Below are positions 12,760 through 49,199 of a DNA stretch of 64,000 nucleotides, one piece after another (position 1 is the stretch's first letter; every line of letters starts with the position of its first letter). The stretch comes from an uncultured Thermoproteales archaeon (GTDB taxonomy: Archaea; Thermoproteota; Thermoprotei; Thermofilales; B20-G17), in the NCBI GenBank assembly GCA_965368245.1, contig CBDUMD010000006.1:10217-74216 (forward strand), written 5' to 3'. A model generated the notes under the pieces. That model had not been told where the DNA came from. It searched no databases and saw only the letters and a list, made by a program, of their open reading frames with translations. The position numbers and the translations under genes are program-made.

Positions 12760-13314
12760 CTACTCTAGTGTTGCATGTCTCTTTAAAATATAGTCTTCGC
12801 CCCTACCAAGCCTTCTCATAAGTTCCGAGGATATGCTGTCAACAACAGCTAAGACGGCTATATCGAATAGGGAGGTGAAGGGGGCATACGACTCCCTTTC
12901 CAGAAGCTTTGTTTTACCAGGAACCCTTAAAATATGATGCGCAAGGCTGGCTAAGGTTCCCTTAGGATTGGCGGTGATGGCCACGATTTTAGCCCCAAGT
13001 TCAAGAGCTTTCCTAGCCATACAGACACTGGAGGCGGTTTCCCCACTACCAGATACGATCACCACTAGGTCTCCTATACCACAACCGGGGGTAATCGTTT
13101 CCCCTATATAGTAGGCGTCTAATCCAATGTGCATTAACCTTTGCGTAAAACATCTGGCAATGAATCCAGACCGGCCTGCACCATAGCAGAAAATTTTCTT
13201 GGCGTCAAGTATTAAATTAATTAGAGCTTCAACTTCATTGAAGTCTATTTCATCCTTCACTATCTCTAGATGCTCAATTATTTCTTCAAGTGAAAGATAG
13301 AATACGTTCGTCAT
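12760..13314 (-). CDS. SIS-domain sugar-phosphate isomerase (6-phospho-3-hexuloisomerase-like)
   Basis: The 184-aa ORF carries FCYGAGRSGFIARCFTQRLMHIGL...VVIVSGSGETASSV...GAKIVAITANP, the typical single-SIS PHI/HxlB-like pattern. Confidence 0.7.
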   Translation of the reverse strand: MTNVFYLSLEEIIEHLEIVKDEIDFNEVEALINLILDAKKIFCYGAGRSGFIARCFTQRLMHIGLDAYYIGETITPGCGIGDLVVIVSGSGETASSVCMARKALELGAKIVAITANPKGTLASLAHHILRVPGKTKLLERESYAPFTSLFDIAVLAVVDSISSELMRRLGRGEDYILKRHATLE

Positions 13315-13385
13315 ATTTACCTGTCCTCTCTTTTTATTAGAGATAAATTATAGTATTTCCGTCTTAAAAGTTTCCTGTAGAAATT

Positions 13386-14642
13386 TTAAGATAAAGGCTC
13401 CACCCTAACTCCTTCGTCGACCTTTACAACGAAGCCCCTTGAAGCCCCGGCTTTCATGGACTCCTTTATCACTCTCCTGCCAATACCTTCATCCGGCACT
13501 AACGCAATAAGTGAACCGCCAAGCCCCGCACCACTTATCTTCACCCCCAACGCACCAGCCTTTAGAGCACGCTCCCTTATTTCCTCGAGTTTAGGGAGGC
13601 TAACATCATATAAGTCCCTTAGAAGCTCATGTTGCTTGTTAATTATAGCACCTAGAAGATCCAGTTTCCCCTTTAGGGAGGCTAATTGTATCCCAAATGT
13701 TTCTAGGGTTTCGCTAAGCTTAAACGGATCCTCCCCTTCCATTATCTTTAAAGCAACTTCCGTTAACGTGTTCATCAAAATTGTGAATTTTATCCTCTTT
13801 GCCGATACTGGGTTAACCTCCTTAAGATAGGGCTCTAATTCTTCAAGCGATAATTCATCCCACCTGGGTTCATCGTACCTGTACCCTAGTTTGACCTTGA
13901 TGTGGTCCGGGACCCTTGGATTTTCCATTAATGTCTTTAATCCCTCATTTATTTCTTGTTGTCTTTTTGGATGTATCTCAACTGTTGCATGCCTTATTCC
14001 AGAATCTAGTACAACTAAATTAAGGTCCTTGAAGGGTATCTTCTCCACGTTGAAGGGTGGCTTTGTATAAAGCTTTATTACTCCCCCATATGCGGATCCA
14101 TATTGATCCAGTCTCCCACAGGGGATTTTTAATTCATCGTGTTCCGCTGTAAAAGATACTTCTGCAATATCTTTAACTGATAAGACCAGCCCGTACTCTA
14201 CGTTTAGCAGATGGGCAAACGCTACCTCAAGGGCAGCACTGCTTGCCAGCCCCGAAGCCACAGGGACATCGCTTATAACTACGACTTTCAAGCCGTAGGG
14301 AAAATATATACCTAGCTTCCTGTTGAACGCACGTACTATGCCCCTGAAATAGTTTCCGAACCAACGCCCCCTCCTCAATTTAGGTTTATTTACTGGGAAT
14401 TTGTCGCGGTAAACCCTACCCTCATTCTTAAGGTTGAGAGATTCCACCGAGAAGAATTTCTCGTCCCTGCCGAGGACGAACATATAGGTTCTTAAGTTAA
14501 TTGCCACAGGTACGACAGGTAAACCCTTATAATCTTGATGCGTGTTGAGGAAATCTGCTCTACCCGGGGCTGAGGTGCATAAAAGACCCTTCGACCCATA
14601 TTCTTGTTCTATAACCTTAATTTTTTCATGCAATGCCTCCAT
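13386..14642 (-). CDS. galK: Galactokinase (GHMP kinase)
   Basis: It has a galactokinase-like N-terminal signature GRADFLNTHQDY, GHMP motif 2 PVASGLASSAALEVA and motif 3 ISGAGLGGSLIAL. GGGGGTG lies upstream of the ATG. Confidence 0.85.
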   Translation of the reverse strand: MEALHEKIKVIEQEYGSKGLLCTSAPGRADFLNTHQDYKGLPVVPVAINLRTYMFVLGRDEKFFSVESLNLKNEGRVYRDKFPVNKPKLRRGRWFGNYFRGIVRAFNRKLGIYFPYGLKVVVISDVPVASGLASSAALEVAFAHLLNVEYGLVLSVKDIAEVSFTAEHDELKIPCGRLDQYGSAYGGVIKLYTKPPFNVEKIPFKDLNLVVLDSGIRHATVEIHPKRQQEINEGLKTLMENPRVPDHIKVKLGYRYDEPRWDELSLEELEPYLKEVNPVSAKRIKFTILMNTLTEVALKIMEGEDPFKLSETLETFGIQLASLKGKLDLLGAIINKQHELLRDLYDVSLPKLEEIRERALKAGALGVKISGAGLGGSLIALVPDEGIGRRVIKESMKAGASRGFVVKVDEGVRVEPLS

Positions 14643-14681: not shown

Positions 14682-17600
14682 TTATTTTTCTGGCTCACCT
14701 AGTTTCATCCTGCTACTCCACTCTAAAGCTATACGCCTTATGAGTCTGGTTGTCCTGTAGACCGCTTCTTCAGGGAACGAGCATTTAACCGGTGTACACT
14801 TTAAAACTATTCCCCAGAATCTGCTTTCACGCGGTAGTTTAAGTTCCAGCTCGTTTACCGTCCGGGCCCGTATCATTCCGTCAGGATACTCGTATGAAAA
14901 GATTATTCTTCTTACCCGCCCCTCAACCCTTATCTCCTCCTCGGTGGCAAGCACGTCTTCGATAGATTCAATTCCACCTTTATATTCCTTAAATCTCTTG
15001 ATGACGAAGTCAACGAAGGATTCGGCTAGACCTGAAGGTATTTTTAATGGTATTGGAACCTCATGGGTCCCTGCAACCCTGCTGCTTTCGAGTCTAAATC
15101 TTCTCAACATGGAGGGGACCACCACGAATGCACCTTTATACGCTGGGTAGATCGAGCCTAGTATGGCTACAAGTATTGAGGCTGAAAGGGCGATAGCACC
15201 CCATGCGGCTGAAACTTTTTGCCTGACTTCAAGTGCTGTGCCAAAAAGCTGTAGGATGCGATAACTTGGAAGACTGAGAAGGTAACCTATTCCTCCCGAT
15301 AGCAATCCAGCTATAATAGCCTCTGAGACGAATAAAAATACTATGTAGGTTGGATTGACCCCTATAGACGATAAGGTCATGACCTCCCTTTTCCGTTGAT
15401 ACACCGAGGATATGAATGTCATGAAAATAGTGAGTATCACCATGGTTGCTGGAACAAGGGTGGATAAGCCTCCCTTAACTTCCAGTATATTCCCATATTC
15501 GGCCTTGTATACGGAGTTGAACGCAGTGTACCATACCTTTACCCCTAGGATAGCGAGCCTCCGTGCAAGCCCTTCAATATTTCGTTCGTCCACCACCGCT
15601 AGAATTGATGTGGGAGTTAGCTCCAATTCGTGGGCGTCGCTTAAAGATATGAAGATAACCTCGTTATCGCGCACAGGTGAAATTACCTGCGAAACCCCTT
15701 GTTCGGTTAAGTAGGTGAAGAGTTTATAGGGGTATAATACCCTTCCATCGAGATCCTTAAATTGCGCCAGTTTCGTTGAGTCGATTATGCCTACAACTTT
15801 AAAGACCTTGCCATTAAATTCAACTTCATCACCTATACTAAGTTTCAAGCTTTCAGCAAGCGAAGAGGTTAACGCTATTTCTCCAGAGCCTGTTGGATAG
15901 TCTCCAGATATAAAGGATGTAAATCCAATCAACTTCGCCTCCCTTGGACTCATGGCTACAACTCCATATATCCTCTCCTTTAATCCGTTTCCTGTAATTA
16001 AGGTACCTAGGGGTTTCTCCGCCACAAAAGATGTATACCTTACATAGTATTCTTTGACGCCTTCTTCGCCCTCCAATACAGCCAAAACCTCTTCCGGAAG
16101 CCTCGTCGGCAACTTGTAAATGGCTTCACCGACCTTCACTACACCAATGTTTTTTACTAGTAACCCATGGTATGATGGCGGGTAAACCTGTTTTAATACG
16201 ACAACCCCTCTCATCGAGGCATATGAAGTTAAAACCATTATAGCCCAGACCATGACCACCATGCTTATCATAGCTAACGTTGTTTGAAGCCTTCTTCTCC
16301 TAAGGTTTCTTTTCGCGGCAGAAAATATAGCTACTATAGCGCTCCAGAAAGCCACGCCTCTTGGAGTAGGCTTCTCTCTTATTATCTTCGGCGCAGCTTC
16401 GGCTAAGCCGAAGATAATAAAAGCAGATGCCACAGAGAGTAATGCCGCCATTTCAAGCGGGTATAGTCTGAATCCCGGATAGCTGGCGTAAACCACAATG
16501 TAGAAGAATAAATATACTAGGATAAAGATAATGGCTTGGAGCCCCTTCTTCTCCGTAACGTACAGGGCGAGTGATGTAGACACAAAAGCCAATATAAGCA
16601 TGATGAAGGGCGTAGATGAAAAGGCTTCAGAATAAGCCTCGCTTAGGATGCTATAAATGTTATCTCCTATAAGCTTTATTTCCCTTAATCCAGCGTAGAC
16701 ACTTGCAAGCCTCCCTAACTTGTAGTCTCTTTTAGCTTTATCGAGCTTGCTGAAAGCCTTGTTAAGATCACTTTTTTCAGCAGTAAGGTAGAATCCTCTT
16801 CCCTCAGCTTGCGCCAGCAATTTATCTATCTCCTTAAGGAAAGCCTCTGCGTCTTTAATCGATTTAGCCAACGTTACGTTAGAAAGGTTAATTGAATAGG
16901 TTCCACCTTTTGGTAACACCATTCCAGAAGGTGAACCTATTGAAACGCTTTTTGAAACGTATTTCGGCTTATTGTCTACAATTATCCTCCAAACGGCAGT
17001 AACATTTATTATTGTTTTTACATTGGCGGGTATTATTACATATCTAGGGTTAAATCCAAGAATATCCTGGATTAATCCTTTAACCTCTGGAGGATAGCTT
17101 CCAAAAGCCGTTATGTTTCCATTGTATGGTCCCTGGTATAACTTAAATCCCTCGACGGTCTGAACGGTGAAGCCGAGGTAATCTGCTGCCTTTTCATACT
17201 CGAATTCATAGTATTCTCCCTCAAATATCACCAGCGCCCCTGGAACCAGCTTTATCTCGAGGCTGAATCCCTTTTTAGTTAGCTCAGGTGTCTTGCAATA
17301 GACTGGTACGTAATCGTTTTCCTGTGTGAAAACATATATTCTATAGGGTTGTCCTATCGGCACGGTAGCATTAAAGAATCCATTGGAGTCCGTAGTGAAG
17401 TTATATTTGTCCATTCTATAGCCTCCTTGAACCACTATTATTGCTCCTTTTATGGGCTTCAATGTCGAGGAATCTTTAACGTAACCCGTAATACTGGCTT
17501 TTGATACGGGTATTGAGGGTTGAGCATATAGATTCATTGATGTAAGGAGGATAATTAACGTGAAACCCAGCAGGAGACCGAAAGAGAAAAACCTTTTCAT
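14682..17600 (-). CDS. Giant FtsX/MacB-type permease fusion, paralog of 7694-10825
   Basis: The architecture is the same. It has a signal peptide and a CarboxypepD_reg-like domain (ITGYVKDSSTLKPIKGAIIVVQGG...TTDSNGFFNATVPIGQPYRIYVF). The helical stalk carries the shared GFYLTAEK motif and is followed by 3 TM. MacB TM1 is AKRNLRRRRLQTTLAMISMVVMVWAIMVL. The FtsX core is VYQRKREVMTLSSIGVNPTYIVFLFVSEAIIAGLLSGGIGY. The tail is 146 aa. GGAGGTG lies 6 nt before the ATG. Confidence 0.8.
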   Translation of the reverse strand: MKRFFSFGLLLGFTLIILLTSMNLYAQPSIPVSKASITGYVKDSSTLKPIKGAIIVVQGGYRMDKYNFTTDSNGFFNATVPIGQPYRIYVFTQENDYVPVYCKTPELTKKGFSLEIKLVPGALVIFEGEYYEFEYEKAADYLGFTVQTVEGFKLYQGPYNGNITAFGSYPPEVKGLIQDILGFNPRYVIIPANVKTIINVTAVWRIIVDNKPKYVSKSVSIGSPSGMVLPKGGTYSINLSNVTLAKSIKDAEAFLKEIDKLLAQAEGRGFYLTAEKSDLNKAFSKLDKAKRDYKLGRLASVYAGLREIKLIGDNIYSILSEAYSEAFSSTPFIMLILAFVSTSLALYVTEKKGLQAIIFILVYLFFYIVVYASYPGFRLYPLEMAALLSVASAFIIFGLAEAAPKIIREKPTPRGVAFWSAIVAIFSAAKRNLRRRRLQTTLAMISMVVMVWAIMVLTSYASMRGVVVLKQVYPPSYHGLLVKNIGVVKVGEAIYKLPTRLPEEVLAVLEGEEGVKEYYVRYTSFVAEKPLGTLITGNGLKERIYGVVAMSPREAKLIGFTSFISGDYPTGSGEIALTSSLAESLKLSIGDEVEFNGKVFKVVGIIDSTKLAQFKDLDGRVLYPYKLFTYLTEQGVSQVISPVRDNEVIFISLSDAHELELTPTSILAVVDERNIEGLARRLAILGVKVWYTAFNSVYKAEYGNILEVKGGLSTLVPATMVILTIFMTFISSVYQRKREVMTLSSIGVNPTYIVFLFVSEAIIAGLLSGGIGYLLSLPSYRILQLFGTALEVRQKVSAAWGAIALSASILVAILGSIYPAYKGAFVVVPSMLRRFRLESSRVAGTHEVPIPLKIPSGLAESFVDFVIKRFKEYKGGIESIEDVLATEEEIRVEGRVRRIIFSYEYPDGMIRARTVNELELKLPRESRFWGIVLKCTPVKCSFPEEAVYRTTRLIRRIALEWSSRMKLGEPEK

Positions 17601-17615
17601 GGTGACACCTCCATT

Positions 17616-19535
17616 CTAGTAGGGTAGGACCCATAATGCTTTGGGTACGAACTGCAGTGCCACGAAAACTACGGCCCATATGGAGAATCCCATCATTACA
17701 CCGCTGTAGAATAGGTAGGCTGCGTTGGTCAACTCCTCTCCTTTGGCTCCATAGATTCTTGGAAGAATAATGTAACGTATAATGGATCCTATGGCCTGTG
17801 GGATGAGCCCAGCATATGCAATATTGTTGACGGTCATGCCAGCTAATATCGATGGGGCTAGCCACGGGATCTTAAGGAAGAAGCCTCCGAGGAAGAGCGC
17901 CGCCCCCGCTATGAATCCAGCCACCACCAAGTTCCACTTAAATATATTGTAGGAGGAGTAGATTTTAATCCATGTAGCTCGGTTTATAACCTCGTTTTCC
18001 CATGCTGTTAAGCCAGGGTATAGCGCCGAGGGTATGGGGGCAAATGACCAGTAAATACTGTACATTACTATGCCTACAACAATCGCTGCCATTGTTGCAA
18101 TAACATAGAGTGTAATGTAGTCTCTAAACTTTACTCCAAGTTGATAGCATTGCAGAAAGGTTCCCGTCCAGCCCGAAGCATTGCTTACAGGAATGAGGTC
18201 GGTGAACATTAAGGGTGAAGCAAACCATATTGAGATTGGAGCGTTTCCGCCAGCCCCCAAAACCAGCACAGCTTCCTTTAGATAAGGTATGTTTACAGGT
18301 GTGTAGCCGGTTATACCTAGGAGCCCTGTCCATACATATGATAGGATAAAGGACATTATTAACGTGAGGAAGATTAGTGGTGGTAGAGGGTATCCGGTTA
18401 ACAGGCTTATGACAATTGCTGAAAGTATTGCACAGCTGGCAAAAAGGGTGAAGAGAGACCATCCACTAGTAATCTTGGATTCACCTTTGAGCTTAAATGC
18501 TCTTGCAAGGGCCTTAGGGGATAAGAGTACAGGTAGAATTCCCAGGGCCATAGCAAACCCGAATATAACACTAACCCAAAAGTTCAATGTACTGTAGTAT
18601 ATTGCATCGGCTGTCTGCATTCCACGGGTCCATCCCCTTAATATCAAGCCTGGAGAGGGGGGAACATGCCTCCAAATGCCTTTAATCACCAGTATGTGGT
18701 TTCCGAAAAAGTAGAGGGAGAGGGCTCCTATAGCCATGGTCACCGTAACATACCAGGGTATTATTAGCCCCTGGAAGAAGCCCAGAGGATAAATGGCTAA
18801 CGAAGCCCCGGGGAACATGTTTTCTATCACGTAGTTTAAATCATACATCGACACGGAGAGAAGCCCGAGGCTATTAAATATACCCAATATAAGTCCAGTT
18901 AAAAGGGAGAATATGAATATCCTATACTGTTTTTTAAATGCAGGGTCGGCTGCTTCACCTAGGGTCGTTAAGGCCGCTACGAACGCCGATTGAACAGGGA
19001 ATTCAAGCTTCTCCTCTATGACTCTTACCCTGAAGAACAGGTATCCTAGAGACATCTCCATTATCATCGAGACTATGACCACAAAGAGTATTACGGAAAG
19101 TACTGGCATCCAGGCTGGGTGAATCAATGTCCTTACACCGTTATCCACCAGCATTATAGCGCTGGAAGGGGCCCACCATTCGGGCGGTTTAATGCCGAAG
19201 GATATCCGCGAGGGACTTTTAACAAAATAGTATACCCATGGTATTGACTGGAAGAGAACAGCTAACCCCAATACCCTGTCGACTATGGTTATTGCGAACA
19301 ACTCCTGTTTAGATAAAGGTCTTTCAGAGTACCTAGATACCTCCGCCAATATTATGATGATAATAGTGGAGGAGACCACGCCGTAGAATGCCTGGGCACC
19401 CCATTGTACGAAGCCAAACGCTAGACCGAAAGTAAGGTTACCCCATATGAGCATGGGCTCCAGTACGAAGAGGGCTAGGAAAAGGGATAGGAGAACCCTC
19501 CAGGTGAATATGGTAGCACGAGCCTCACTTCCCAT
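17616..19535 (-). CDS. Polytopic membrane protein (~16 TM), putative permease with weak OPT-superfamily resemblance
   Basis: The 639-aa ORF is almost entirely hydrophobic helices. The motif EEKLEFPVQSAFVAAL resembles the OPT L-x-FP-x-G/A motif. It is a paralog of 25826-27895 (compare IERIPFPEATLYSTLI, and C-termini RYIILPRIYG / KYIVLRFYG). GGTGAT lies upstream of the ATG. Confidence 0.6.
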   Translation of the reverse strand: MGSEARATIFTWRVLLSLFLALFVLEPMLIWGNLTFGLAFGFVQWGAQAFYGVVSSTIIIIILAEVSRYSERPLSKQELFAITIVDRVLGLAVLFQSIPWVYYFVKSPSRISFGIKPPEWWAPSSAIMLVDNGVRTLIHPAWMPVLSVILFVVIVSMIMEMSLGYLFFRVRVIEEKLEFPVQSAFVAALTTLGEAADPAFKKQYRIFIFSLLTGLILGIFNSLGLLSVSMYDLNYVIENMFPGASLAIYPLGFFQGLIIPWYVTVTMAIGALSLYFFGNHILVIKGIWRHVPPSPGLILRGWTRGMQTADAIYYSTLNFWVSVIFGFAMALGILPVLLSPKALARAFKLKGESKITSGWSLFTLFASCAILSAIVISLLTGYPLPPLIFLTLIMSFILSYVWTGLLGITGYTPVNIPYLKEAVLVLGAGGNAPISIWFASPLMFTDLIPVSNASGWTGTFLQCYQLGVKFRDYITLYVIATMAAIVVGIVMYSIYWSFAPIPSALYPGLTAWENEVINRATWIKIYSSYNIFKWNLVVAGFIAGAALFLGGFFLKIPWLAPSILAGMTVNNIAYAGLIPQAIGSIIRYIILPRIYGAKGEELTNAAYLFYSGVMMGFSIWAVVFVALQFVPKALWVLPY

Positions 19536-19546
19536 ATCACATCACC

Positions 19547-22500
19547 CTACCTACCCAACATTTTTTCAGCTTTCTTAATATAACGTGACCTATCATCCTC
19601 CCTTAAACTACGCCACATTAATATCTGGAACCTGACATCCTCTATAAGGGACCTGTTTGAGATAATCCAGCCAGCTAAGGGTCCGGTTAACCTCTTTAAA
19701 TAAAGTTCAAAATTGTACCCGGCGCCCTCCAAACTCATACCTCTCAACGCGAATATTTGCGTTATTCCCTGATCCCAGGGTGCCAGTTGGGTGCGGCCTT
19801 TAAGTTCAAGTAATTTATTTTGTTTATCCCATTTAAAGTCCAGTTCTAATATCTGGTAGCTTCCAACCCTCTCTGCTTTTCTATACTCGAGGTATTCGCG
19901 TATAAACTCCATGAAGGCCAGCGCCTCAAGGGTTGAGGCCAGTCTCAGGGGTAAGGGTATCATCCATTCATCGCCTTTAGGTTTTGTTGGCGGCTTCCAT
20001 CTTCTTTCGAGAGACGGAGTTACCAACTTTGAAGCCTTATAGGCTGGATATAGGGCTATGGAAATTATGCTAAAGAACATTATGCCTAACGTCGTCAAGG
20101 TGCCTGAAGAAGTATAGTTTGTGTATAGTCCGGCGGTCGGTATGTTTAAGAGGGCGAGGGAGGCGGAGAAAAGCAAGCTGACGACGTATCCTATTATCCC
20201 GCCCAGGAGGCCGTAGACTATCATTTCGACGAGATATAGGGTGGCTATGTGTGAGGGGGAGAGGCCTATTGAACTGAGTATTCCTATCTCTCTTACTCGT
20301 TCAACGATGGAACCTATTATAGTTGAGAGCAATACTAGAACCGCCAGTAATAATACGATAAAAGCTTCTCCTGTGCCCAGCATACGCAGGCTGGGGTTTA
20401 TGCTTAAAGTATACATTGCTCCGTCTTCCGATACCCACACGGTACCTTGCGTTATCAAGGCTATTTTCTCCGCAAGCTTCCTAATGCTTCCTTTAACCGG
20501 TTTAAATGCTATGCTTCGGACCCCAGGCAATGTGTAGGCTATTTCATAGGATTGAGAAGACGTTGCGGGTGAAAGAAGATCCTCAGCCAGCTTGAATGGA
20601 ACTATTATAACAAAGTCTGCTTGAAGTGGATCTTTGTAGGGGCTCTTAAGGTTTACTGGCGTCAGCTTCCATCGATCTATATCGTGCATTGTATCGATTA
20701 CAGTGCTATCAAAAATCCCTTTTACAACGAGTTTTACGCCAAAGAGATCAAGGGTGTCGCCTACCTTCAGTCCAAGAGCATTAGCTATATCGTCGCTTAT
20801 TATACATGTCCTGTAGTCCCATGGGTCGAACCACTCCCCAGATATTATTGCATCATCTATTTTCGTAAACAAGTTTTCCTCGGGACTTACAGCTAATATT
20901 CCACGCAAAAGCGCACTAGTGGTTTTGCCTGGAGCAGTCAAGTATATTTCCCCTCCAGGAGGATAAAGCCATGCCCGTACGGATATTATAGCTTCATCCG
21001 AGAACGCCTGTTTCAGGAACTTTACTTGCTCAAGAGGTATTACACCGAAATCCAGGGTTCTGTAGAGGACCCCTTCATATGGTATGTTCTCCAGAGGCGG
21101 CTGCCGGATTATGGCTGGTGCTATGGTGATGCTAACAGATGAGAAGGTTAGCATGGAGAAACCAACTACTACCACTGATATCAACGTCAGAGCCGTCCTC
21201 AGCGGTCTTCGGTTCATATGTCCTAGGCTGATGTTCACCGCAGCACCTATGGCGCTTGTCCTTTCGAATTCCACGAAGTGTAAGCCTATCCTCTCCTTTC
21301 TTACCTCCTTAAGTTGACCGTATCCTCTAGAGAATATTATTATGGTGGTTACCAGTCCTAGGATCATAGCGATATAGCCTGCTAGAACCATGAAAGTGTT
21401 GGTGGCCAGCATCGTTGTCGGATGTAATGCAACGAAAATCCCGTCAAACATGGCATTTACAGCTAGGAATAAAATAATCTTCCCCTTGAATGTGGCTTTC
21501 TCCCGTACTATGAGGTTTACTAAGAGCCAGGAGAAAGGTATTACAAGTATAAAATATATAACCGCCATTTGCAAGACGTCTGTAAGGAAGGTTCTAGTAG
21601 CGTAGTAGGCATTGACTTCGAATTGACGTGCAATAATCATGTGTGTAATAGCTTTATCGTACCCGTAGTTTCTTATGTAGCTCCAGGCTTGCTTCAATTC
21701 CTTTTCAGCCATATTATGGTATAGGAGGGCCAGGGCTTGGGTAGAAATGTTAGCCCATTTCACAGGGGCAAGCCTGAACTCATCTAGATACCATGTTTCC
21801 TGTGCTAAACGTAGTGGAGCATACGATATCCACATGTTTTCTCCAGGCTTTAGCACAAATCCTGAGCCCTCAGGGGCTGGCTCCTTTATCCCTGCTATTA
21901 AGCCTGAGGGTTGTAACGGTACAACGGTGACCATCCAACCGAAGCTTCCAGCCGTAATGGCGTAGACGGAAGACCTATAGGCAAGGATTTCCAGCGGAAT
22001 ATTAGGAGGAACATATATGACCTCGTCGTAGCTGTCAAATGTTCTTCCATAGTAGTATGGCTGTGGAATATAGTGTGTACGTGCATCTAGCGCCCAATGG
22101 GATAATATTGCTACAAGAGTTGTGCTGAACCCTGAACCAAATATGGTTATGCGGCTTACGTTAAAGCTCATTGATTGCGTAAAATCTGTATGAACTGAGT
22201 GTATTAATAGACTTCCCATACCCATGGAACCGGGACCAGAATATGGGCTTAAACCTATGATACGACCGTTTTCATCGAGGTAGAAACCAGTGAATAATAC
22301 TCTATCATTGTAACGGAAACCTATAAAGTTTGCCTCCCCGTTCTCGTTGGTTTTAGCTATCATTATAAAGGGGAAGGTGGCTCTCGGGGAAACCATCGTT
22401 GTACCTATCGGTGCTGCAACCACTAATGCCCCTTCAACCGGCGAGTATTGTGCCGTCTTCACATCATACCGCCATATTCTTATAGTTAGACTACAGAATC

Positions 22501-24010
22501 CTAGGTCGGGTAGATTTATCCTCCTGTAAATTGGCGTTGCCAAAGGGTTCCAGAAAGGAGCCGAGAGAATCTTCGAGAGCACTGCCTCCAGAACCTCCAG
22601 TTGAGGTAGAAGGTTAAAGTAGTTTAGTTTATCGTATGTATCGAAAGGTGTTGTTAAATAGGGGTACAATGATCTAGCTGTTCTAAAGGTTATTCCGAGC
22701 CCCCCAGCAACGGTCCACGGCTCTACATCTAACATGGCTGGGTAAAGATCTCCCACCTCTGAAAGCAGGTTTAATAGGGTTTGGTATAGTTCCTCTCCAG
22801 GTGGAGCCGTCACAAGCACATTGTAGAAGTTATAGCTTTTTCCGGTAAGTTCCTTAAGCTCCTTTACTGCATCGTTTGCCATCTGCCTGATCCAACTATA
22901 TCTAATGAGCATCCCTGTCTGGGTGTCAACAGTCCAGTATCCGTAGCCAAAGTTTCTAAGGGAAACGGAATCGCTGGCCGTAGATATATCTAGGCTTATC
23001 ATTAACTTTACTTTTCGCATGAAACCTTTGTTTTCTTCCAGCTCTCTGAAACGTGCTTCAGTGAAGTATCGTGGTCCGGCCAGATACTGCCAGTGTCCTC
23101 CAAAGGCTACTAAAACTATGGTTCTTGGTGGAGGATTCTCCCTTAGAACTCTAGCTAATTCGAGCAATAGGGCTATGCTAATACTATCGCTGGCCCCGGG
23201 GGAAACTGCAGGCACCACCGAGAAGGTATCGTAATGGGCGGCAATTATCACGTATTCCTCCTTCAGTCTCGGATCTGTACCCGGTATTATAGTCCAGATA
23301 TTGTAGCCTTCCTTTTCCTCCCAAGACATTTTGGAGTTAACGGTGGCCTTCACCCCTCTTTTACTGGCTTCCTTAAGAATCTCCCCTACAGTGTGGTTCA
23401 CGTAGAGCCTTGGGAAGCCCGTGGGAATACTGATTATCTTGTATTCACCGAATGTTCTGGGAACAGCTTTCTCGATTACGGGTGTTTCTATGAAAATAAC
23501 AGCTTTTGCTCCTAACATGGGAAGTAGACGCCAATCCCACAGCGAATCGTAATCCACTAGAACAATGCTTCCATTAATTTCCTGGCCTTCAAGCTCCTCT
23601 AATGTTGCTTTACCGACATAAACTAGTCGACCGGAAACATTTAGAGCGTTGGCTGGATCTATACCCGTAGGGTAAAACATATGTGCCTTAAATACTGTTC
23701 CATCCTCTAATCTAATGTAAGCATACTGTTCGATCGGAACTACCACAGTAAACTCTTCTCTTGTAACGTTAAGCCCTAAACTATAAAGATAGTTGTAAAT
23801 GTAGTCTGCTGCCGTATAAAAGCCTTCGTAGCCGGTGAACCTTGATTGAAGACCAGTAAAGAATTTTAGATGTTTATCTATGTTTTCCAGGCTTAACGGA
23901 ATTATCCTCCATTCGCCGCTGGGTTGAGAATATATGCTCAATGGCTGTATAAACCCTATTAAAACAAGCATTATAAGGATTAACACCATTAAGTTTGATC
24001 TGTTTTTCAT
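19547..24010 (-). CDS. Giant fusion: M28-peptidase-like/PA ectodomain, multi-TM block, FtsX/MacB-type module and ~158-aa cytoplasmic tail
   Basis: It has a signal peptide and a PA-like insert (GSIVLVDYDSLWDWRLLPMLGAKAVIFIE). The M28 pattern is IIAAHYDT...PGASDSISIALLLELARVL...VLVAFGGHWQYLAGPRYF. MacB TM1 is LGHMNRRPLRTALTLISVVVVGF. The FtsX core is IVERVREIGILSSIGLSPSHIATLYLVEMIVYGLLGGIIGY. The ATG at 24010 lies 1 nt after the upstream stop. The track start at 24019 is a GTG. Confidence 0.8.
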   Translation of the reverse strand: MKNRSNLMVLILIMLVLIGFIQPLSIYSQPSGEWRIIPLSLENIDKHLKFFTGLQSRFTGYEGFYTAADYIYNYLYSLGLNVTREEFTVVVPIEQYAYIRLEDGTVFKAHMFYPTGIDPANALNVSGRLVYVGKATLEELEGQEINGSIVLVDYDSLWDWRLLPMLGAKAVIFIETPVIEKAVPRTFGEYKIISIPTGFPRLYVNHTVGEILKEASKRGVKATVNSKMSWEEKEGYNIWTIIPGTDPRLKEEYVIIAAHYDTFSVVPAVSPGASDSISIALLLELARVLRENPPPRTIVLVAFGGHWQYLAGPRYFTEARFRELEENKGFMRKVKLMISLDISTASDSVSLRNFGYGYWTVDTQTGMLIRYSWIRQMANDAVKELKELTGKSYNFYNVLVTAPPGEELYQTLLNLLSEVGDLYPAMLDVEPWTVAGGLGITFRTARSLYPYLTTPFDTYDKLNYFNLLPQLEVLEAVLSKILSAPFWNPLATPIYRRINLPDLGFCSLTIRIWRYDVKTAQYSPVEGALVVAAPIGTTMVSPRATFPFIMIAKTNENGEANFIGFRYNDRVLFTGFYLDENGRIIGLSPYSGPGSMGMGSLLIHSVHTDFTQSMSFNVSRITIFGSGFSTTLVAILSHWALDARTHYIPQPYYYGRTFDSYDEVIYVPPNIPLEILAYRSSVYAITAGSFGWMVTVVPLQPSGLIAGIKEPAPEGSGFVLKPGENMWISYAPLRLAQETWYLDEFRLAPVKWANISTQALALLYHNMAEKELKQAWSYIRNYGYDKAITHMIIARQFEVNAYYATRTFLTDVLQMAVIYFILVIPFSWLLVNLIVREKATFKGKIILFLAVNAMFDGIFVALHPTTMLATNTFMVLAGYIAMILGLVTTIIIFSRGYGQLKEVRKERIGLHFVEFERTSAIGAAVNISLGHMNRRPLRTALTLISVVVVGFSMLTFSSVSITIAPAIIRQPPLENIPYEGVLYRTLDFGVIPLEQVKFLKQAFSDEAIISVRAWLYPPGGEIYLTAPGKTTSALLRGILAVSPEENLFTKIDDAIISGEWFDPWDYRTCIISDDIANALGLKVGDTLDLFGVKLVVKGIFDSTVIDTMHDIDRWKLTPVNLKSPYKDPLQADFVIIVPFKLAEDLLSPATSSQSYEIAYTLPGVRSIAFKPVKGSIRKLAEKIALITQGTVWVSEDGAMYTLSINPSLRMLGTGEAFIVLLLAVLVLLSTIIGSIVERVREIGILSSIGLSPSHIATLYLVEMIVYGLLGGIIGYVVSLLFSASLALLNIPTAGLYTNYTSSGTLTTLGIMFFSIISIALYPAYKASKLVTPSLERRWKPPTKPKGDEWMIPLPLRLASTLEALAFMEFIREYLEYRKAERVGSYQILELDFKWDKQNKLLELKGRTQLAPWDQGITQIFALRGMSLEGAGYNFELYLKRLTGPLAGWIISNRSLIEDVRFQILMWRSLREDDRSRYIKKAEKMLGR

Positions 24011-24011
24011 T

Positions 24012-25655
24012 TTAACCACCTGAAACAGAAATCTTCAAGCCTTCTCCTCCAAAAACACTCCTCATATACCTTAAGACCGTTACAGCATCTTCATTTAATA
24101 TCAATCTTACCGCAAAAAGATAACTATACGTACCTTCATCTAAAAGAACAAAACCTCTCGGAACAACCTTCCTTTCAGAAGCATAAGGTTCTGCATTAGG
24201 ATCCTGACCATCGTAACATAGCATACGTTCATGTATGCCTGCTATAAAGACTAAGTCTGCGGCTGGATCGTTGGAAGGCACCTCTCCAAGCCAATCGTAC
24301 CACGGGAACTTGTGTAAAGTTATATGCCAGTAGCCGAGAGGATTAGCAGGATCGTTCCCCAACAGCATTATACCCACCCCTTCATCATAGTCTCTAAGGG
24401 CTGCAACAGGGTGCTTTATCCAAAGGTCGTTTCCAGGGTATGGTGGAGAATAAAGGTCCCCTGTATCTGTTAAAAAGAACAATGCACGCCAAACAGAAAG
24501 CTGGGGGATAGCCATGTTGCCCATACCCGATGGATTATAGTATCTGTAGTCGGCTTCACCCGGAGCGGGTTTACCAGCGTTAGGTCCAACTGTAAATTCA
24601 TGCGTAACGTACACGACTGCACGGTAAAGCATGTAAGGGCGATTCACCGGCACAGCAAAGAACTCGTACGTATAACCCTCGGTTTTAAGGTTCCATCTTC
24701 TAGCGTAGACGGCGAAAAGCGGGCCAACCGAGTCTATCCACATTTTTGTTTTCATCAAATACGCGTACATTTTTCCGTTGCCGTCATCGAAGTAGGCGTC
24801 GATCATCCCATGAAAGAAGCTGAGACCAGACCTTGTGGAGTTGGCGGGTCTATACATTTTTGCGAAATTGACTTCTTCACTCCCAAAGTAGTCTATGTTG
24901 CCGTGGTAATATTCTGTCTCGTTGAAACGTACTTTAATAACCCCGTTGTAGATCACAGTATACCCCTCAAACCTTTCAATCTTCAAGCTAGGTGTAGAAG
25001 AATTAGAGTAGGAGGATTCTTCTCCAAAAACAATAGTGAAGCTTTTTAATCCACCAGGAGGGACCTCTAAGGGGAAGCTTATTACTGCTGTTTTTACGTA
25101 TCCCGACTGGTATGTTACTATGCCCCACATCTGGTTTAATACTTCAACACCGTTTTCATCCAAAACCCTAACCTCGCCAGGCTTAACCTCACCATCAGCA
25201 AAAAACAGTTCGAAGCTAGCGATCTCATCCAACGGCTTGTTTTCATAGTTCTCGAAAACTACGTTTATTTTAGTTAGCGTAGGGGATTTTTTCTTTACCT
25301 CGACCCTACCCTGACTGGTGTCTATCGAAATCGTATATTCACCGCCATTCCATGGGTAATAAATTTCAATGTATTTTGTTTCGCCAGGATATATGATGAT
25401 CCATCTTGAAGACCACGATGAAAAGCTTACACCGTTAACTGAAACAGCGTTTATGGTAACATTATCGTTACCTTTATTCTTCAAGTAAACCCTTATGGTC
25501 CTCAGGATCTTCCATCCATCGTTCTTAACCAAAAATTCTACCCTTTCAATGGATACATTTACCTGTGAAAACGGGTTATAAATAAATACAAAACCAAGCA
25601 CAAGTAATAAAATTACTGCAGAAACCATCAATACTGTTTTTGAGGGAAATTTCAC
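24012..25655 (-). CDS. N-terminally anchored extracellular beta-sandwich protein (no family recognised), paralog of 32868-34490
   Basis: There is a TM/signal anchor (TVLMVSAVILLLVLGFVFIY), then a CARDB-like segment (LKNKGNDNVTINAVSVNG). Long blocks are collinear with the 540-aa paralog (NQMWGIVTYQSGYVKTAVISFPLEVPPGGLKSF vs SQMWGIVTYESGYVKTAIISFHVSIPPGGEKTF). The start is GTG, preceded by AGGGGGTGTG. Confidence 0.6.
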   Translation of the reverse strand: MKFPSKTVLMVSAVILLLVLGFVFIYNPFSQVNVSIERVEFLVKNDGWKILRTIRVYLKNKGNDNVTINAVSVNGVSFSSWSSRWIIIYPGETKYIEIYYPWNGGEYTISIDTSQGRVEVKKKSPTLTKINVVFENYENKPLDEIASFELFFADGEVKPGEVRVLDENGVEVLNQMWGIVTYQSGYVKTAVISFPLEVPPGGLKSFTIVFGEESSYSNSSTPSLKIERFEGYTVIYNGVIKVRFNETEYYHGNIDYFGSEEVNFAKMYRPANSTRSGLSFFHGMIDAYFDDGNGKMYAYLMKTKMWIDSVGPLFAVYARRWNLKTEGYTYEFFAVPVNRPYMLYRAVVYVTHEFTVGPNAGKPAPGEADYRYYNPSGMGNMAIPQLSVWRALFFLTDTGDLYSPPYPGNDLWIKHPVAALRDYDEGVGIMLLGNDPANPLGYWHITLHKFPWYDWLGEVPSNDPAADLVFIAGIHERMLCYDGQDPNAEPYASERKVVPRGFVLLDEGTYSYLFAVRLILNEDAVTVLRYMRSVFGGEGLKISVSGG

Positions 25656-25825: not shown

Positions 25826-27895
25826 TTAGGGTATGTAACCGTACCAGCGTAAGGCAAGGTACGTTCTTCTAAACACGCTTACGACAGTGAAGCCTCCCAG
25901 GAATCCTACACAGAACGGAACGATGTATTTAGTGTAGGGCGATGAGCCGTAGAATCTGAGTACAATATACTTTATTATCCATGCTACAAGGATGGGGAAA
26001 GCTCCGCCAGTCGCGTTGTCTATAACACCCCACGATGTTCCCATCACTACGCCGACTGGATTGAGGAACGCCAGTGCTGGAACCATTGTGCGGACGACCA
26101 TTAACACAGCAACTATTATTATTCCTATGAACCATCTAAGCGCCTGCTCATAGACTGGTATTCTGTAGAGCATCCATCCCTGGGGATCCACGATTCTAGG
26201 ATCATCGATGCCCCAGTTTACCACGAACCATTTAACGTAGCTTGGGATGTTGTTGAAGCCTACGCTGTAAACCAGGTTTATCATGTAGAGGAAGGTTACG
26301 ACAACCACTATTATTGCTGCAATGAATCCGACTAGGAATATGTCTCTGGAGTCGGTTTTAGTGTCCGCGCCGACTTTAAATGCCATCATGGCGTTGGCTA
26401 GGGTATGGCTGGTGTTTCCGTTGCATCCCCAGACCTCTATCGTAGCGTACGACATAAACATTGTGGTAAAGGCGTTTGGATCTACTGATCCAAGGTCAGA
26501 TACGTAAAACAGGTTTGATGCCGTCCACGGAATAACCAGTGCATCGTATTCGCCGTGCATGGGGAATATACCGAATTCAGCATAAGCCCTCGAAAAGCCT
26601 AGGAACCAGATTATTACTATTATTGGAAGTATGAAAGCAGACCACACATTGGCTCCCATGGCTAGAAATAGGGCAAACATCATGATGAAGCCTATACCCA
26701 GGAGAAGATATGCCACCGTGTAGCTTACTGGTTCACCAGGTTCCCTAGGTGCTCTTTTTACGGCGGCATCGAAGGTTCTTCTAATATACTTCCACGACAA
26801 AAACAATGGAACTATGCCTAGACCAAGGATTTCACCGAAGTAGATGTTTCTCATGGATATCGGTAGGTTCCAGACAATGTAATTGAGCGCGTTGTGGAGG
26901 GTGCCGGGGTCTGTGGGAAGTATACCCATGTAGTATAATATGGGTGGTAGTACGAAGTATACTATATACCAGACCAGCCATGTGGAGAACAATACGTCGA
27001 GCGGCACGAGGAGGAAGAAGGTAACCCAGTTCGGCGAGATACTTATAAGGGGATAGCTTCCTGGAAGAACGGTGTCCAATCCTAGAACGGACTTAAAGTC
27101 TGTTCTGACATATCCATGTAACATGCCCCAGTCAACCCAGCCATACCATATGGTTAAGATATGGGGTAGACGCCAAAGAATTCCAGCCAGTATGCCTACG
27201 AAGATCATCTTTATGAAAATCTTGTTTTCTGGTTTATCGGTGCTTGTGGAAGTTATTAGTGTGGAGTATAATGTGGCTTCAGGGAACGGTATTCTTTCAA
27301 TCTCTATCCACTGTTTTCTTAGGATGGAGCCTAGACCCATAAACAATATAAGCCAGCCGATATAGAAGGTTAGCCACATTGCTATTGGACCGCTAAGGGC
27401 ACCCCACGGTGTGGGTCCTCCATCTGCTGCCATATTGTATAGCTCTGGGCTAGGCATCCACCATATGCTGGGTCTAAGGTATGATAAAGCTTCGTAGCCT
27501 CCATGTGCCAGAGCAAAGAATAAGCCCATGCTGGGCCAGTAGAAGAACCATCCCCATGCCGTTGAAAGCTGTATTGCTGCAAATATCATGGCAAATTCCT
27601 TTTCATTTAAATATAGTCTTCTCCCCGCTTTTCCCGAGAGAACTTTCAGAACGTAGTTTACTACAGCCAATATGAGCATTGCCGGAAGTACACGAACCAC
27701 TCTCGGTATAAGGGTGTTCCAACCCCATCCAGCACCATTATAGTCGATGGAGCCAAGCCACCCAGTTACGCTGGCCAGCTGAGGGGCATAAGTCCCCCAT
27801 ATATTGTAAAACGTTATTATCAGTGAAATTATTATTGCCAAAATTAATGGCACTATTGGAAAAGCCTTCCTAACCTCAGTTTTAGGAGCGGACAT
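25826..27895 (-). CDS. Polytopic membrane protein (~16 TM), paralog of 17616-19535, putative permease
   Basis: The 689-aa ORF is very hydrophobic and Trp/Tyr-rich. It shares motifs with the 639-aa protein (see that entry). AGGGGGTG lies 9 nt before the ATG, with TATA-like elements 50-75 nt upstream. Confidence 0.6.
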   Translation of the reverse strand: MSAPKTEVRKAFPIVPLILAIIISLIITFYNIWGTYAPQLASVTGWLGSIDYNGAGWGWNTLIPRVVRVLPAMLILAVVNYVLKVLSGKAGRRLYLNEKEFAMIFAAIQLSTAWGWFFYWPSMGLFFALAHGGYEALSYLRPSIWWMPSPELYNMAADGGPTPWGALSGPIAMWLTFYIGWLILFMGLGSILRKQWIEIERIPFPEATLYSTLITSTSTDKPENKIFIKMIFVGILAGILWRLPHILTIWYGWVDWGMLHGYVRTDFKSVLGLDTVLPGSYPLISISPNWVTFFLLVPLDVLFSTWLVWYIVYFVLPPILYYMGILPTDPGTLHNALNYIVWNLPISMRNIYFGEILGLGIVPLFLSWKYIRRTFDAAVKRAPREPGEPVSYTVAYLLLGIGFIMMFALFLAMGANVWSAFILPIIVIIWFLGFSRAYAEFGIFPMHGEYDALVIPWTASNLFYVSDLGSVDPNAFTTMFMSYATIEVWGCNGNTSHTLANAMMAFKVGADTKTDSRDIFLVGFIAAIIVVVVTFLYMINLVYSVGFNNIPSYVKWFVVNWGIDDPRIVDPQGWMLYRIPVYEQALRWFIGIIIVAVLMVVRTMVPALAFLNPVGVVMGTSWGVIDNATGGAFPILVAWIIKYIVLRFYGSSPYTKYIVPFCVGFLGGFTVVSVFRRTYLALRWYGYIP

Positions 27896-28016: not shown

Positions 28017-29027
28017 CTATGATTGAACCATAGCACCAAGGGCTTTATAGCCTTCTTTTTTCTTAAGATCATTCAAGGCTTTGTTAACTGCTTTCTTCAA
28101 CTGCATAGCCCGTTCTTCAGGTAGCCCATCGTATGTAAAGACGCCAGCACCCCATTCAATGCCAGCAGCATACTTAAGTTTATTTGCATCTCTATTAGGA
28201 GGATAAAATTCTATATGTAAATGGTAGTATTTGTATTCACCTCCATCCGTTGGGCTTTGATGCACAGCCATAATATATGGAAGATTCATATCGAAAAGCA
28301 TGTTATAGGCTTTTGTAATGACCTTTAGTGCATCGGCCAAGGAGTAACGTTCTTCCTCCGTTAACATGGGCAGATTCTGTACGTGTCTTCTAGGATACAC
28401 ATGTACCTCGTAAGGCCACATAGCGAAGAAAGGCAGAAACACGGTGAAATCAGCGTTTTCATAGAGAATTCTAGACTTGCTCTCGTATTCAAGCTCCAGG
28501 ATCCTACAGAATAAACATCTTCCATTTTCCTTATAGAATTTCCTAGAGTTATCCAACTCCCTTTTAACCCTAGGAGGGATGAAAGGTAAAGCATATATTT
28601 GTGAATGGGGATGGTGCAACGAAACCCCTATTGCAGCTCCCTTGTTTCTAAACTCGAAAACGTATTTTATTTTGGGATCTCTGCCTAATTCTACGTACCT
28701 CTGGCTGAACGCATCTATAACCTCCTTTAAATGCTCAAGACTTAGGTCGCATAAATCCCCCTCATGCATGGGGGTTTCTATCACAACTTCGCAGTAACCG
28801 TATCCAGGCTTAACACAATAAATGTCCTTAGAAGAGGACGCGACTTCAGCGTCAACCCTTAAGGCCGGATACCTGTTTGGGAGCACTAGAACCCTCCATC
28901 CCTCCCCTGTTTCCTCCGACCCTGGGCAGAAGGGACAGTAGTTCGGCCTCCATGGACGTTTCTCCCTTTTAGCTGCAACAATTATCCATTCACCGAGAAT
29001 AGGATTCCATCTTAACTCGTTCGTCAT
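28017..29027 (-). CDS. galT: Galactose-1-phosphate uridylyltransferase
   Basis: It has the zinc knuckle CPFCPG and the HIT-type active site HHPHSQI. A second-half-domain HLHIEF is also present. The likely start is the ATG at 29027 (MTNELRW), preceded by AGGTGA. The track start GTG at 29036 abuts the galE stop. Confidence 0.85.
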   Translation of the reverse strand: MTNELRWNPILGEWIIVAAKREKRPWRPNYCPFCPGSEETGEGWRVLVLPNRYPALRVDAEVASSSKDIYCVKPGYGYCEVVIETPMHEGDLCDLSLEHLKEVIDAFSQRYVELGRDPKIKYVFEFRNKGAAIGVSLHHPHSQIYALPFIPPRVKRELDNSRKFYKENGRCLFCRILELEYESKSRILYENADFTVFLPFFAMWPYEVHVYPRRHVQNLPMLTEEERYSLADALKVITKAYNMLFDMNLPYIMAVHQSPTDGGEYKYYHLHIEFYPPNRDANKLKYAAGIEWGAGVFTYDGLPEERAMQLKKAVNKALNDLKKKEGYKALGAMVQS

Positions 29028-29036
29028 CAACGTCAC

Positions 29037-29987
29037 CTAACCTGTTTCCAGCTCCTCCAAGAGACTTGTAACAGTAAGTTCAACGGATTCCCGGCTATTG
29101 TGTTTTGGAGTCCATCCAAGTTTTCTAAGCTTTTGCACGCTTAAAAGCATGTACTTTACATCTCCCTTCCAGCCCCGCCCTCCATCAACGCCCCCAGTAG
29201 TGTAGAGTTCAACGTTTTTTAATCCCATTTTATCTACCACTATCTTAGCGATATCCATTACAGATACGGAGTCTTCAGATCCTATATTAAATACATCGTA
29301 TTCCTTCTCGACGCTCCTCCATAGGAATATTGTCGCATCTACAGCGTCGGTGACATAAAGATAGGATTTTCTCTGAGTTCCATCCCCCAGAATTTCTAGT
29401 CGTCTTGGATTCCGTTTAAGTTTCATTATGAAATCGTATATTACGCCATGCCTCAATCGGGGACCCACGATGTTAGCGTATCTGAGAGATAGGCCTCTAA
29501 GACCGTAGGTGTGAACATAGGACGATATCAGGGATTCGCATGCGAGTTTAGAAGCCCCGTAAACGGATATTGGTTCAAGGGGGGTATAGTTTTCAGGTGT
29601 TGGCATGACTTTAGCGTCACCGTAAACCGTAGACGAGGATGCAAACACTATATTTCTTACATCGTATTTCCTCATAGCCTCAAGAACTATAAAGGTACCT
29701 AGAATATTGTTTTCAAAGTGGACTCTTGGTATACCTATCCTAACTTCCGGGTTAGCGGCGTAATGGAAGACCGTATCACAATCCTTTACTGCTTTCCACA
29801 CATCCCTAGTCCTTCTTATATCCCCCTTAATTAAACGAAAGTTTCTATGTTTTAATGCATGCTTCAGGTTGTCGGTCGTCCCAGAGGTTAGGTTGTCAAG
29901 GCATACAACTTCGTACCCCTCCGCTAAGAGTCTATCAACCAAATGGCTTCCAATGAATCCAGCTCCACCTGTAACGAGAACCTTCAT
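29037..29987 (-). CDS. galE: UDP-glucose 4-epimerase (NAD-dependent epimerase/dehydratase)
   Basis: It has the Rossmann motif [17 protein letters not shown] and the catalytic YGASK (YxxxK). It is 316 aa and sits immediately upstream of galT. Confidence 0.8.
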
Positions 29988-30148
29988 TGGAGACCCTCAT
30001 ACCCCTAAGTAAGTTTACCCGTTTAAACTTTTCGAAAACAACCTTAAGCCCCCAGATCTACTCTTCCATATTGGAAAGAAAAGGCTTCCAGATCCTACAA
30101 GAAAATATAGATTCTATAGTTGAAAGTATTTTAAGGATAGAGAATCCA

Positions 30149-47552: not shown

Positions 47553-47574
47553 AGATTTTTCGGTGTTAATCTAC

Positions 47575-48231: not shown

Positions 48232-48241
48232 GGTTCACAGG

Positions 48242-49195: not shown

Positions 49196-49199
49196 TTAA

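Follow-up and report, generated by a model that had tools for sequence, protein, structure and literature searches.

The bacterial aminopeptidases of Aneurinibacillus sp. AM-1 (2ek8), Bacillus subtilis (BSAP/YwaD, 6hc6) and Pseudomonas aeruginosa (PaAP, 8ack), in which an M28 peptidase fold carries a PA insert, are soluble, secreted enzymes with an intact H-D-E-D-H dinuclear metal site and its Glu-Glu pair. The eukaryotic proteins TfR1, nicalin and nicastrin carry an M28-type fold as a membrane-anchored extracytoplasmic module that has lost catalytic residues and serves in binding. FtsX-type four-helix modules, with an extracytoplasmic domain held on helical extensions between the first and second transmembrane (TM) helices and an ER-x-x-EI-G loop, are found in ABC (ATP-binding cassette) systems of type VII such as MacB, LolCDE, FtsEX-EnvC, YbbAP-TesA and YtrEF, of which FtsEX-EnvC and YbbAP-TesA do work on extracytoplasmic partners, i.e., the catalytically dead peptidase-like activator EnvC and the hydrolase TesA (PMC7668044, PMC12646458). 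Both elements, a PA-M28 head and an FtsX/MacB module, were found in a single protein of 1490 amino acids (aa), referred to here as the M28-FtsX protein, that is encoded within a 64-kb stretch of DNA from an uncultured Thermoproteales archaeon (the window).

In a preliminary description of this DNA, the N-terminal part of the protein was read as a PA-containing M28 scaffold that keeps the first His and the bridging Asp, has His-Trp in place of the catalytic Glu-Glu pair and is fused to an FtsX module, and the fusion was thought to be uncharacterized. Alignments, profile searches and structure comparisons bore out this reading, and a literature search revealed no paper on an M28-FtsX fusion, on the DUF6785 family of a nearby gene or on a link between OPT and FtsX proteins. 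The explanation favored here, to which a probability of roughly 45% is assigned, is that the head is a pseudo-peptidase that would capture a peptide-like ligand for import by an OPT-like permease, while the FtsX module would couple an ATPase to the head. The novelty would lie in a pseudo-peptidase head fused in cis to a putative mechanotransducer of the type VII ABC kind, with an OPT protein as its partner.

Architecture and fold of the M28-FtsX protein

The gene occupies 19547..24019 on the reverse strand, to which all features of the protein given below belong, and has a GTG start. The same protein is present in a public record (P0001, 'hypothetical protein DRJ47_04820, Thermoprotei archaeon') with a start three codons later and a length of 1487 aa. 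An artefact, a pseudogene or a chimeric assembly was rejected in view of the intact open reading frame, the public record with the same protein and the existence of full-length homologues in the hundreds.

The segment initially noted (22580-23930) corresponds to aa ~30-480. Within it, Pfam Peptidase_M28 (PF04389) matched aa 240-354 (48.8 bits, E 8.9e-13; cut-off 21.3) over profile positions 1-103 of 193 only. In a phmmer search of the PDB, aa 126-322 were aligned with 2ek8, an aminopeptidase that contains a PA domain (E 3e-8), and this alignment was extended into the C-terminal half when a family profile built from 56 sequences was compared with 2ek8 (E 3.7e-34). The best match in the PDB of an AlphaFold2 (AF2) model of aa 1-815, made with the family alignment (pLDDT 88.8, pTM 0.89), was also to 2ek8 by Foldseek (E 4.5e-27), together with BSAP and PaAP and followed by TfR1 and GCPII, so that the top matches of the ectodomain were PA-containing M28 proteins throughout. 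A significant match to PF02225 was not obtained with the target alone but was recorded for several homologues. Matches of the family profile to nicalin (1.4e-16) and TfR1 (1.1e-14) were more distant than those to the bacterial enzymes, and the Pfam Nicastrin match of the target reached an E of 0.055 only. With Pfam, the 2ek8 alignment and Foldseek in agreement, the PA and M28 assignment is secure.

Pfam FtsX (PF02687) matched aa 1219-1332 of the same open reading frame (E 2.7e-14), and MacB_PCD (PF12704), while below its cut-off of 27 in the target (23.4 bits, E 8e-5), was recorded for many homologues. The family profile ran through the MacB periplasmic domain (E 2.9e-4) and matched MacB (7e-20) and YtrF (5.8e-16, over the whole module, i.e., profile positions 913-1306) as well as LolF, LolC and LolE, and Foldseek matched the module to LolCDE and MacB (E ~2e-9). 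These results identify the membrane module as a bona fide FtsX/MacB module of four TM helices with an extracytoplasmic domain between the first and the second.

The remaining layout of the protein was as follows. An N-terminal hydrophobic helix (aa ~8-29, 23933..23998), seen in a Kyte-Doolittle scan and as helix 8-29 of the AF2 model, forms a signal anchor or first TM helix and is followed by the PA-M28 ectodomain (aa ~36-485, 22565..23914), the insert of which aligned to the PA region of 2ek8 at aa ~125-235 (23315-23647). Next come beta-sandwich middle domains recognized from the AF2 secondary structure (aa ~500-731, 21827..22522) and a long helical hairpin or stalk of ~80 residues (aa 734-814, 21578..21820) that runs into the membrane in the AF2 prediction. 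Three TM helices (aa ~820-896, 21332..21562), indicated by the TM scan and AF2, complete a 1+ectodomain+3 topology with the N-terminal anchor, and a cytoplasmic linker joins this bundle to the MacB/FtsX-type module (aa ~939-1332, 20024..21205). Within the latter, one TM helix, a MacB_PCD-like extracytoplasmic domain of ~250 aa (aa ~965-1215) and three further TM helices occur in that order, and an ER-x-REI-G coupling-loop motif after the first of these three aligned through the family profile with the segment of MacB that carries its coupling helix. The protein ends in a conserved cytoplasmic alpha/beta domain (aa 1340-1490, 19550..20002) with near-invariant W/R/Q/L/W columns, for which Foldseek gave only weak matches (E 0.03-0.1) to lipid-binding folds of the START/Bet v1 type. 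No Pfam family was assigned to the beta-sandwich domains, to the first bundle of TM helices or to the C-terminal domain. The membrane part has 8 TM helices, the C-terminal half of which is a MacB/FtsX (type VII ABC) module.

The resulting 1+3/1+3 helix layout is similar to that of pseudosymmetric YbbP in topology only, as the two halves are without detectable sequence similarity (PMC12646458 for YbbP). An internal FtsX duplication was considered and rejected: a profile-profile comparison of aa 805-935 with aa 1205-1345 gave a probability of 0.7%, no FtsX match was seen in the first TM bundle with Pfam at E<=10, and the loop between the second and third TM helices of that bundle is too short for a coupling helix. 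Compared with the known type VII systems, the M28-FtsX protein has its peptidase-like element in cis, as a second ectodomain of ~800 aa with its own anchor before it and three extra TM helices after it, and compared with TfR1, nicalin and nicastrin, which are single-pass proteins without an FtsX module, it is polytopic.

Active site of the head

In the translation, the residues at the catalytic positions of M28 enzymes were located in the motifs AAHYDT (aa 260-265), PGASDSIS (GASDSIS from aa 275), AFGGHWQYLAG (aa 305-315), ISLD (aa 341-344) and LDVE (aa 430-433). Ligand positions that are kept were indicated by His262 of the HYD motif (nucleotides 23234-23236) and by Asp278 at the position of the bridging Asp (nucleotides 23186-23188), which together with the invariant Asp264 lie in 23186..23236, and, in the family-profile alignment, by Asp344 at the fourth position (22988..22990). 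In both the phmmer and the family-profile alignments, His309-Trp310 (23090..23095) occupied the position of the Glu-Glu pair, i.e., the general base and a metal ligand. In the phmmer alignment with the PDB sequence, 'fgghwqylag' of the target lay under 'FGAEENGLIG' of 2ek8 with the two residues exactly beneath the two Glu and the L-x-G anchor in register, and a shifted Glu-Glu pair was not found. A further loss, which had been missed in the preliminary description, was apparent at the last His ligand, where 'ldsEpf' of the family aligned to 'SDHESF' of 2ek8. This position is Ser in the family and Val432 in the target (22721..22726 with the conserved Glu433 that follows), and Glu433 corresponds to a Glu also found in 2ek8.

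Shared between the bacterial aminopeptidases and the M28-FtsX protein are the HxD and TPxDT motifs and the Asp residues at the bridging and fourth positions, whereas the target has His-Trp in place of the Glu-Glu pair and Val in place of the last His. Of the five ligands (His, bridging Asp, Glu, Asp and His) of active co-catalytic M28 enzymes, three are kept (His262, Asp278 and Asp344) and two are lost (the Glu ligand to Trp310 and the last His to Val432), and the general-base Glu is replaced by His309. The kept residues correspond to the His97/Asp117/Asp179 half-site of the Aeromonas aminopeptidase, the Glu152/His256 half-site being gone, in a ligand numbering that reportedly stems from Chevrier et al. 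1994. The head therefore belongs to M28 by fold and homology but, judged by its catalytic residues, is predicted not to be an active co-catalytic peptidase. Since it is closer to the bacterial PA-aminopeptidases than to TfR1, nicalin and nicastrin, its M28 fold would have been retired or repurposed independently of theirs, a binding role like that of the eukaryotic proteins being predicted for it.

Family distribution and conservation of the active site

The fusion proved to be widespread and no archaeal oddity. A word-indexed search indicated ~75 clusters that share the M28 plus FtsX architecture of ~1500 aa, and an exhaustive HMMER search with the ectodomain only gave at least 527 representatives (clusters of 50% identity) at E<=1e-30, the best 150 of which were nearly all 1450-1550 aa long. 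Among the genomes of GTDB species representatives, at least 294 stretches were matched that also encode relatives of the ectodomain. The lineages concerned were Thermoprotei, Thermofilaceae, Desulfurococcaceae, Bathyarchaeia, Brockarchaeota, metagenome-assembled genomes (MAGs) labeled 'Thaumarchaeota' and, among bacteria, Armatimonadota (Chthonomonas and Fimbriimonadia). Current annotation of family members is limited to 'M28 family peptidase' or 'FtsX-like permease'. Multiple copies per genome were common. Single archaeal MAGs were seen to carry two or three paralogous modules of M28-FtsX and OPT-like genes (L010/L017, L049/L056/L071 and L050/L064), a pattern that suggests diversification for different ligands.

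Conservation of the active site was assessed in 224 proteins, i.e., ~217 members of the fusion family and 7 non-fused canonical M28 enzymes that were included as distant matches, and residues were compared between lineages for 25 bacterial and 55 archaeal members. The Glu-Glu pair was present in none of the ~217 fusion proteins, its sole carriers being the 7 canonical enzymes, while Asp264 was present in 224/224. Position 309 was His in 177 of the 224 proteins (~82% of the fusion members) and Tyr in 21, and position 310 was aromatic in most (Trp 88, Tyr 37, Phe 25, His 24). Asp344 and Glu433 were mostly kept, and Ser, Ala or Thr appeared at the position of the last His. Position 262 was Tyr in ~35% of members and position 278 was Glu, Ser, Asn or Pro in most. 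In archaeal members His or Tyr occurred at 262 and Glu (80%) or Asp at 278, with His309 in 47/55. In bacterial members Tyr or Phe occurred at 262, Ser, Asn or Ala at 278 and Phe at 310, so that these proteins are without the first His as well as the bridging Asp, yet His309 was retained in 25/25. The His-Asp-His-Trp-Asp pattern of the target is thus a minority variant, the one that retains the largest number of ligands, and the canonical dinuclear center is absent throughout the family.

In the preliminary description, loss of the Glu-Glu pair was taken as a mark of non-catalytic M28 relatives. Such loss by itself is no proof of inactivity because a 'functional E151H' Aeromonas aminopeptidase is reportedly described in the title of a paper by Bzymek et al. 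2005 (cited in PMC3426542 and PMC4320195). In one rival explanation the head would still be an enzyme, i.e., an atypical mononuclear metallo-aminopeptidase or other hydrolase in which His262, Asp278 and Asp344 bind one metal, His309 acts as general base, trimmed peptides are imported by the OPT-like permease and the FtsX part serves for anchoring or regulation. Retention of the three ligand positions of one half-site in the target and its closest relatives, strong conservation of His at the general-base position, the nearest structural relatives being active bacterial aminopeptidases rather than TfR or nicalin, and the suitability of an adjacent OPT gene for peptide scavenging are all consistent with this explanation, as is a score of structure 2anp, presumably the E151H entry, slightly above that of wild-type Aeromonas aminopeptidase against the family profile. 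The E151H variant, however, keeps a full dinuclear site and the target does not; two of the five ligands were gone in every family member examined; and positions 262 and 278 vary as described above. As all bacterial members lack His262 and Asp278 but have His309, chemistry shared by the family cannot depend on that metal site. An enzymatic head is considered unlikely.

The same pattern argues against a shared metal center and for a binding pocket, as proposed in the pseudo-peptidase explanation. Strong constraint on His at the general-base position indicates that this pocket is not decaying freely. In this respect the family differs from TfR1, nicalin and nicastrin, as it does in the three ligand positions kept by the target, and a His conserved where M28 enzymes have their general-base Glu makes it a clean test of whether the M28 scaffold can be turned to binding or to single-metal or metal-free chemistry.

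Gene neighborhood

The gene 11 nucleotides downstream of that for the M28-FtsX protein (17616..19535, −) encodes an OPT-like polytopic membrane protein of 639 aa with ~13-15 hydrophobic segments. No direct Pfam match and no match in a PDB sequence search were obtained for this protein, and its assignment comes from a full-length BLAST match (E 2.5e-35) to a 643-aa protein of a related locus (L001) that reached 45.2 bits on PF03169, for which the cut-off is 25.8. It is thus homologous to a protein that passes the Pfam threshold for the OPT family (TC 2.A.67). Upstream of the M28-FtsX gene lies a gene (25826..27895, −) for a 689-aa membrane protein of the DUF6785 family (Pfam E 3.1e-29), which is itself a remote OPT relative (Pfam OPT E 0.015 over the full length).

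Synteny was counted over GTDB loci in which the M28-FtsX gene is flanked on either side by 2.5 kb or more (34 archaeal and 15 bacterial). Among the archaeal loci 34/34, and among the bacterial loci 14/15, had an OPT-like gene no more than 3 kb away, in most cases at less than 200 bp and on the same strand, and a DUF6785 gene occurred within 3 kb in 27/34 archaeal and 0/15 bacterial loci. Individual look-up of contigs from Thermoprotei, Bathyarchaeia and Armatimonadota revealed the same trio or pair. Linkage to OPT-superfamily permeases is obligatory or nearly so. An ABC ATPase gene was found in the flanks of 12/15 bacterial loci, 4.2-5.3 kb downstream of the M28-FtsX gene, and was of the LolD/MacB/FtsE type (TIGR02211, E 6e-69), which establishes an operon linkage to a type VII ATPase in bacteria. 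The conserved Armatimonadota operon (L007, 10001-22199; also L031, L042, L045, L054, L059, L063, L065, L067, L077, L080, L087 and L089) consists of genes for M28-FtsX, the OPT-like protein, a 309-aa protein of no assigned function, a PqqD-like protein of 139 aa and the LolD/MacB-type ATPase.

Whereas type VII systems have an ATPase, the archaeal loci are without an adjacent one and have an OPT-superfamily permease as their obligatory neighbor. To our knowledge, no characterized type VII system has such a neighbor, and we know of no accessory receptor or FtsX partner described for the OPT family. Characterized OPT proteins are reported to operate alone as proton-coupled symporters. The family is large and its synteny unusually clean, which makes it of moderate to good interest, and the invariant pairing hints at a way in which peptides or related nutrients may be taken up by Armatimonadota and by poorly understood archaea (Thermoprotei, Bathyarchaeia and Brockarchaeota).

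The composition of the bacterial operons bears on a role in peptide export or processing, in which a peptide would leave the cell through the MacB-type module and be bound or matured there by the M28-like head, its precursor having been supplied on the cytoplasmic side by the PqqD-like protein. A PqqD-like gene, of the recognition-element type known from ribosomally synthesized and post-translationally modified peptides, is conserved in the Armatimonadota operons together with the LolD/MacB-type ATPase gene; this ATPase also scored on models of bacteriocin- and darobactin-export ATPases, and MacB-family exporters carry toxins and bacteriocins. Both genes are nevertheless absent from archaeal loci, including the window, neither a gene for a precursor peptide nor one for a maturase was seen, and OPT-family proteins are generally importers. 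Export is regarded as very improbable.

Other features of the bacterial relatives call to mind a machine for envelope remodeling or recycling like FtsEX-EnvC, in which an envelope hydrolase would be bound or activated by the head, or the head would attach to S-layer glycoprotein or to peptide stems of the envelope, and the OPT-like permease would recycle fragments. FtsEX governs hydrolases through catalytically dead peptidase-like activators such as EnvC (PMC7668044), some bacterial versions of the M28-FtsX protein are ~2400 aa long and carry LysM domains, bacterial relatives adjoin genes for AnmK or a class A penicillin-binding protein, and genes for glycoprotein-type glycosidases (GH18/85-like and GH63-like) lie near the target in the window. 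Against such a role, archaeal hosts are without peptidoglycan, neighborhoods are conserved only for OPT, DUF6785 and ATPase genes, and no conserved candidate partner hydrolase adjoins the gene, which leaves an envelope machine improbable.

Proposed role

The pseudo-peptidase explanation, in agreement with the earlier suggestion of a binding module or altered chemistry coupled to FtsX, accommodates these observations in the following way. The head, with its dinuclear metal site dismantled, would no longer be a canonical two-zinc aminopeptidase and would stand atop the stalk above the 8-TM membrane part, where its remodeled pocket (conserved His309, Asp344 and Glu433 and an aromatic residue at 310) would capture an extracellular ligand, most likely the N-termini of peptides or glycopeptides. 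Import of this ligand, captured or released, would fall to the co-transcribed OPT-superfamily permease and, in archaea, the DUF6785 paralogue, while the FtsX module would relay changes in conformation between the cytoplasmic side and the head. The putative driver is a LolD/MacB-type ATPase, encoded in the operon in Armatimonadota and presumably elsewhere (in trans) in this archaeon. A peptide theme is suggested by the M28 fold, the OPT family and the PqqD-like peptide-chaperone gene of the bacterial operons. If correct, this explanation would widen the concept of type VII ABC mechanotransmission so that it takes in archaea, import and a pseudo-enzyme fused in cis.

Several findings weigh against it. 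An ABC ATPase gene was present in the flanks of only 1/34 archaeal loci, and none was found in the window, in which most open reading frames of at least 150 aa were scanned, or in the 10 kb upstream. As no ABC ATPase is encoded nearby in this archaeon, the 'mechanical coupling' of the preliminary description rests on analogy and on the bacterial operons, and ATP-driven mechanotransmission in archaea is an assumption. Retention of His262, Asp278 and Asp344 by the target makes a mononuclear metal site, and hence catalysis, possible in this protein. The surroundings of the gene in the window are, moreover, sugar-related rather than peptide-related and differ between lineages. Given this sugar-oriented context, glycopeptides may be considered as ligands; the context is not conserved in other lineages.

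A bolder version of the proposal, which we regard as unlikely, is that the module constitutes a new kind of receptor-coupled uptake machine common to thermophilic archaea and Armatimonadota, in which the catcher head on its type VII ABC-like mechanotransducer would dock one or two OPT-superfamily secondary transporters and gate or feed them, in archaea possibly without a dedicated ATPase. Such a machine would be an analogue, built from unrelated parts, of binding-protein-dependent or SusCD/TonB-type capture.

Other genes of the window

The gene that overlaps the start of the M28-FtsX gene by 8 nucleotides (24012..25655, −) encodes a 547-aa protein with a single TM anchor, for which no family or PDB match was obtained. 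It was rejected as a conserved partner since relatives lack it, including the closest locus (L009), where no such gene occupies the corresponding place, and it represents a lineage-specific insertion outside the conserved module. A paralogue of 42% identity is encoded at 32868-34490 (−), both products being single-anchor extracellular proteins of ~545 aa, and the latter gene precedes that for a GH36-like alpha-galactosidase.

The surroundings as a whole resemble a locus for galactoside or glycoprotein utilization (6531-7607, 12760-14642, 28017-32818, 34775-37075, 41073-43247, 45481-47358 and 47563-50969). Genes noted in these segments were for a GH18/GH85-like endoglycosidase, a SIS protein, the Leloir-type proteins GalK, GalT and epimerase, a melibiase-like (alpha-galactosidase-like) glycoside hydrolase, three MGH1/GH63-like hydrolases, a pyroglutamyl peptidase and an S9/S33-type hydrolase.

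The window also encodes two other giant proteins with an FtsX domain, of 972 aa (14682-17600, −) and 1043 aa (7694-10825, −). Both have the layout of the M28-FtsX protein, i.e., an anchor, an ectodomain, three TM helices and an FtsX module, with a CarboxypepD_reg-like head in place of PA-M28. No ATPase gene was found near either, and sharing of the C-terminal domain of the M28-FtsX protein with them was not established. Upstream of the gene for the 1043-aa protein lies one for a 587-aa protein without TM segments (10961-12724, −), the Asp-rich repeats of which (DSDGDGIPDEDP, DTDDDGLDD and DTDGDDIPDGIDE) are similar to calcium-binding thrombospondin-type-3-like motifs.

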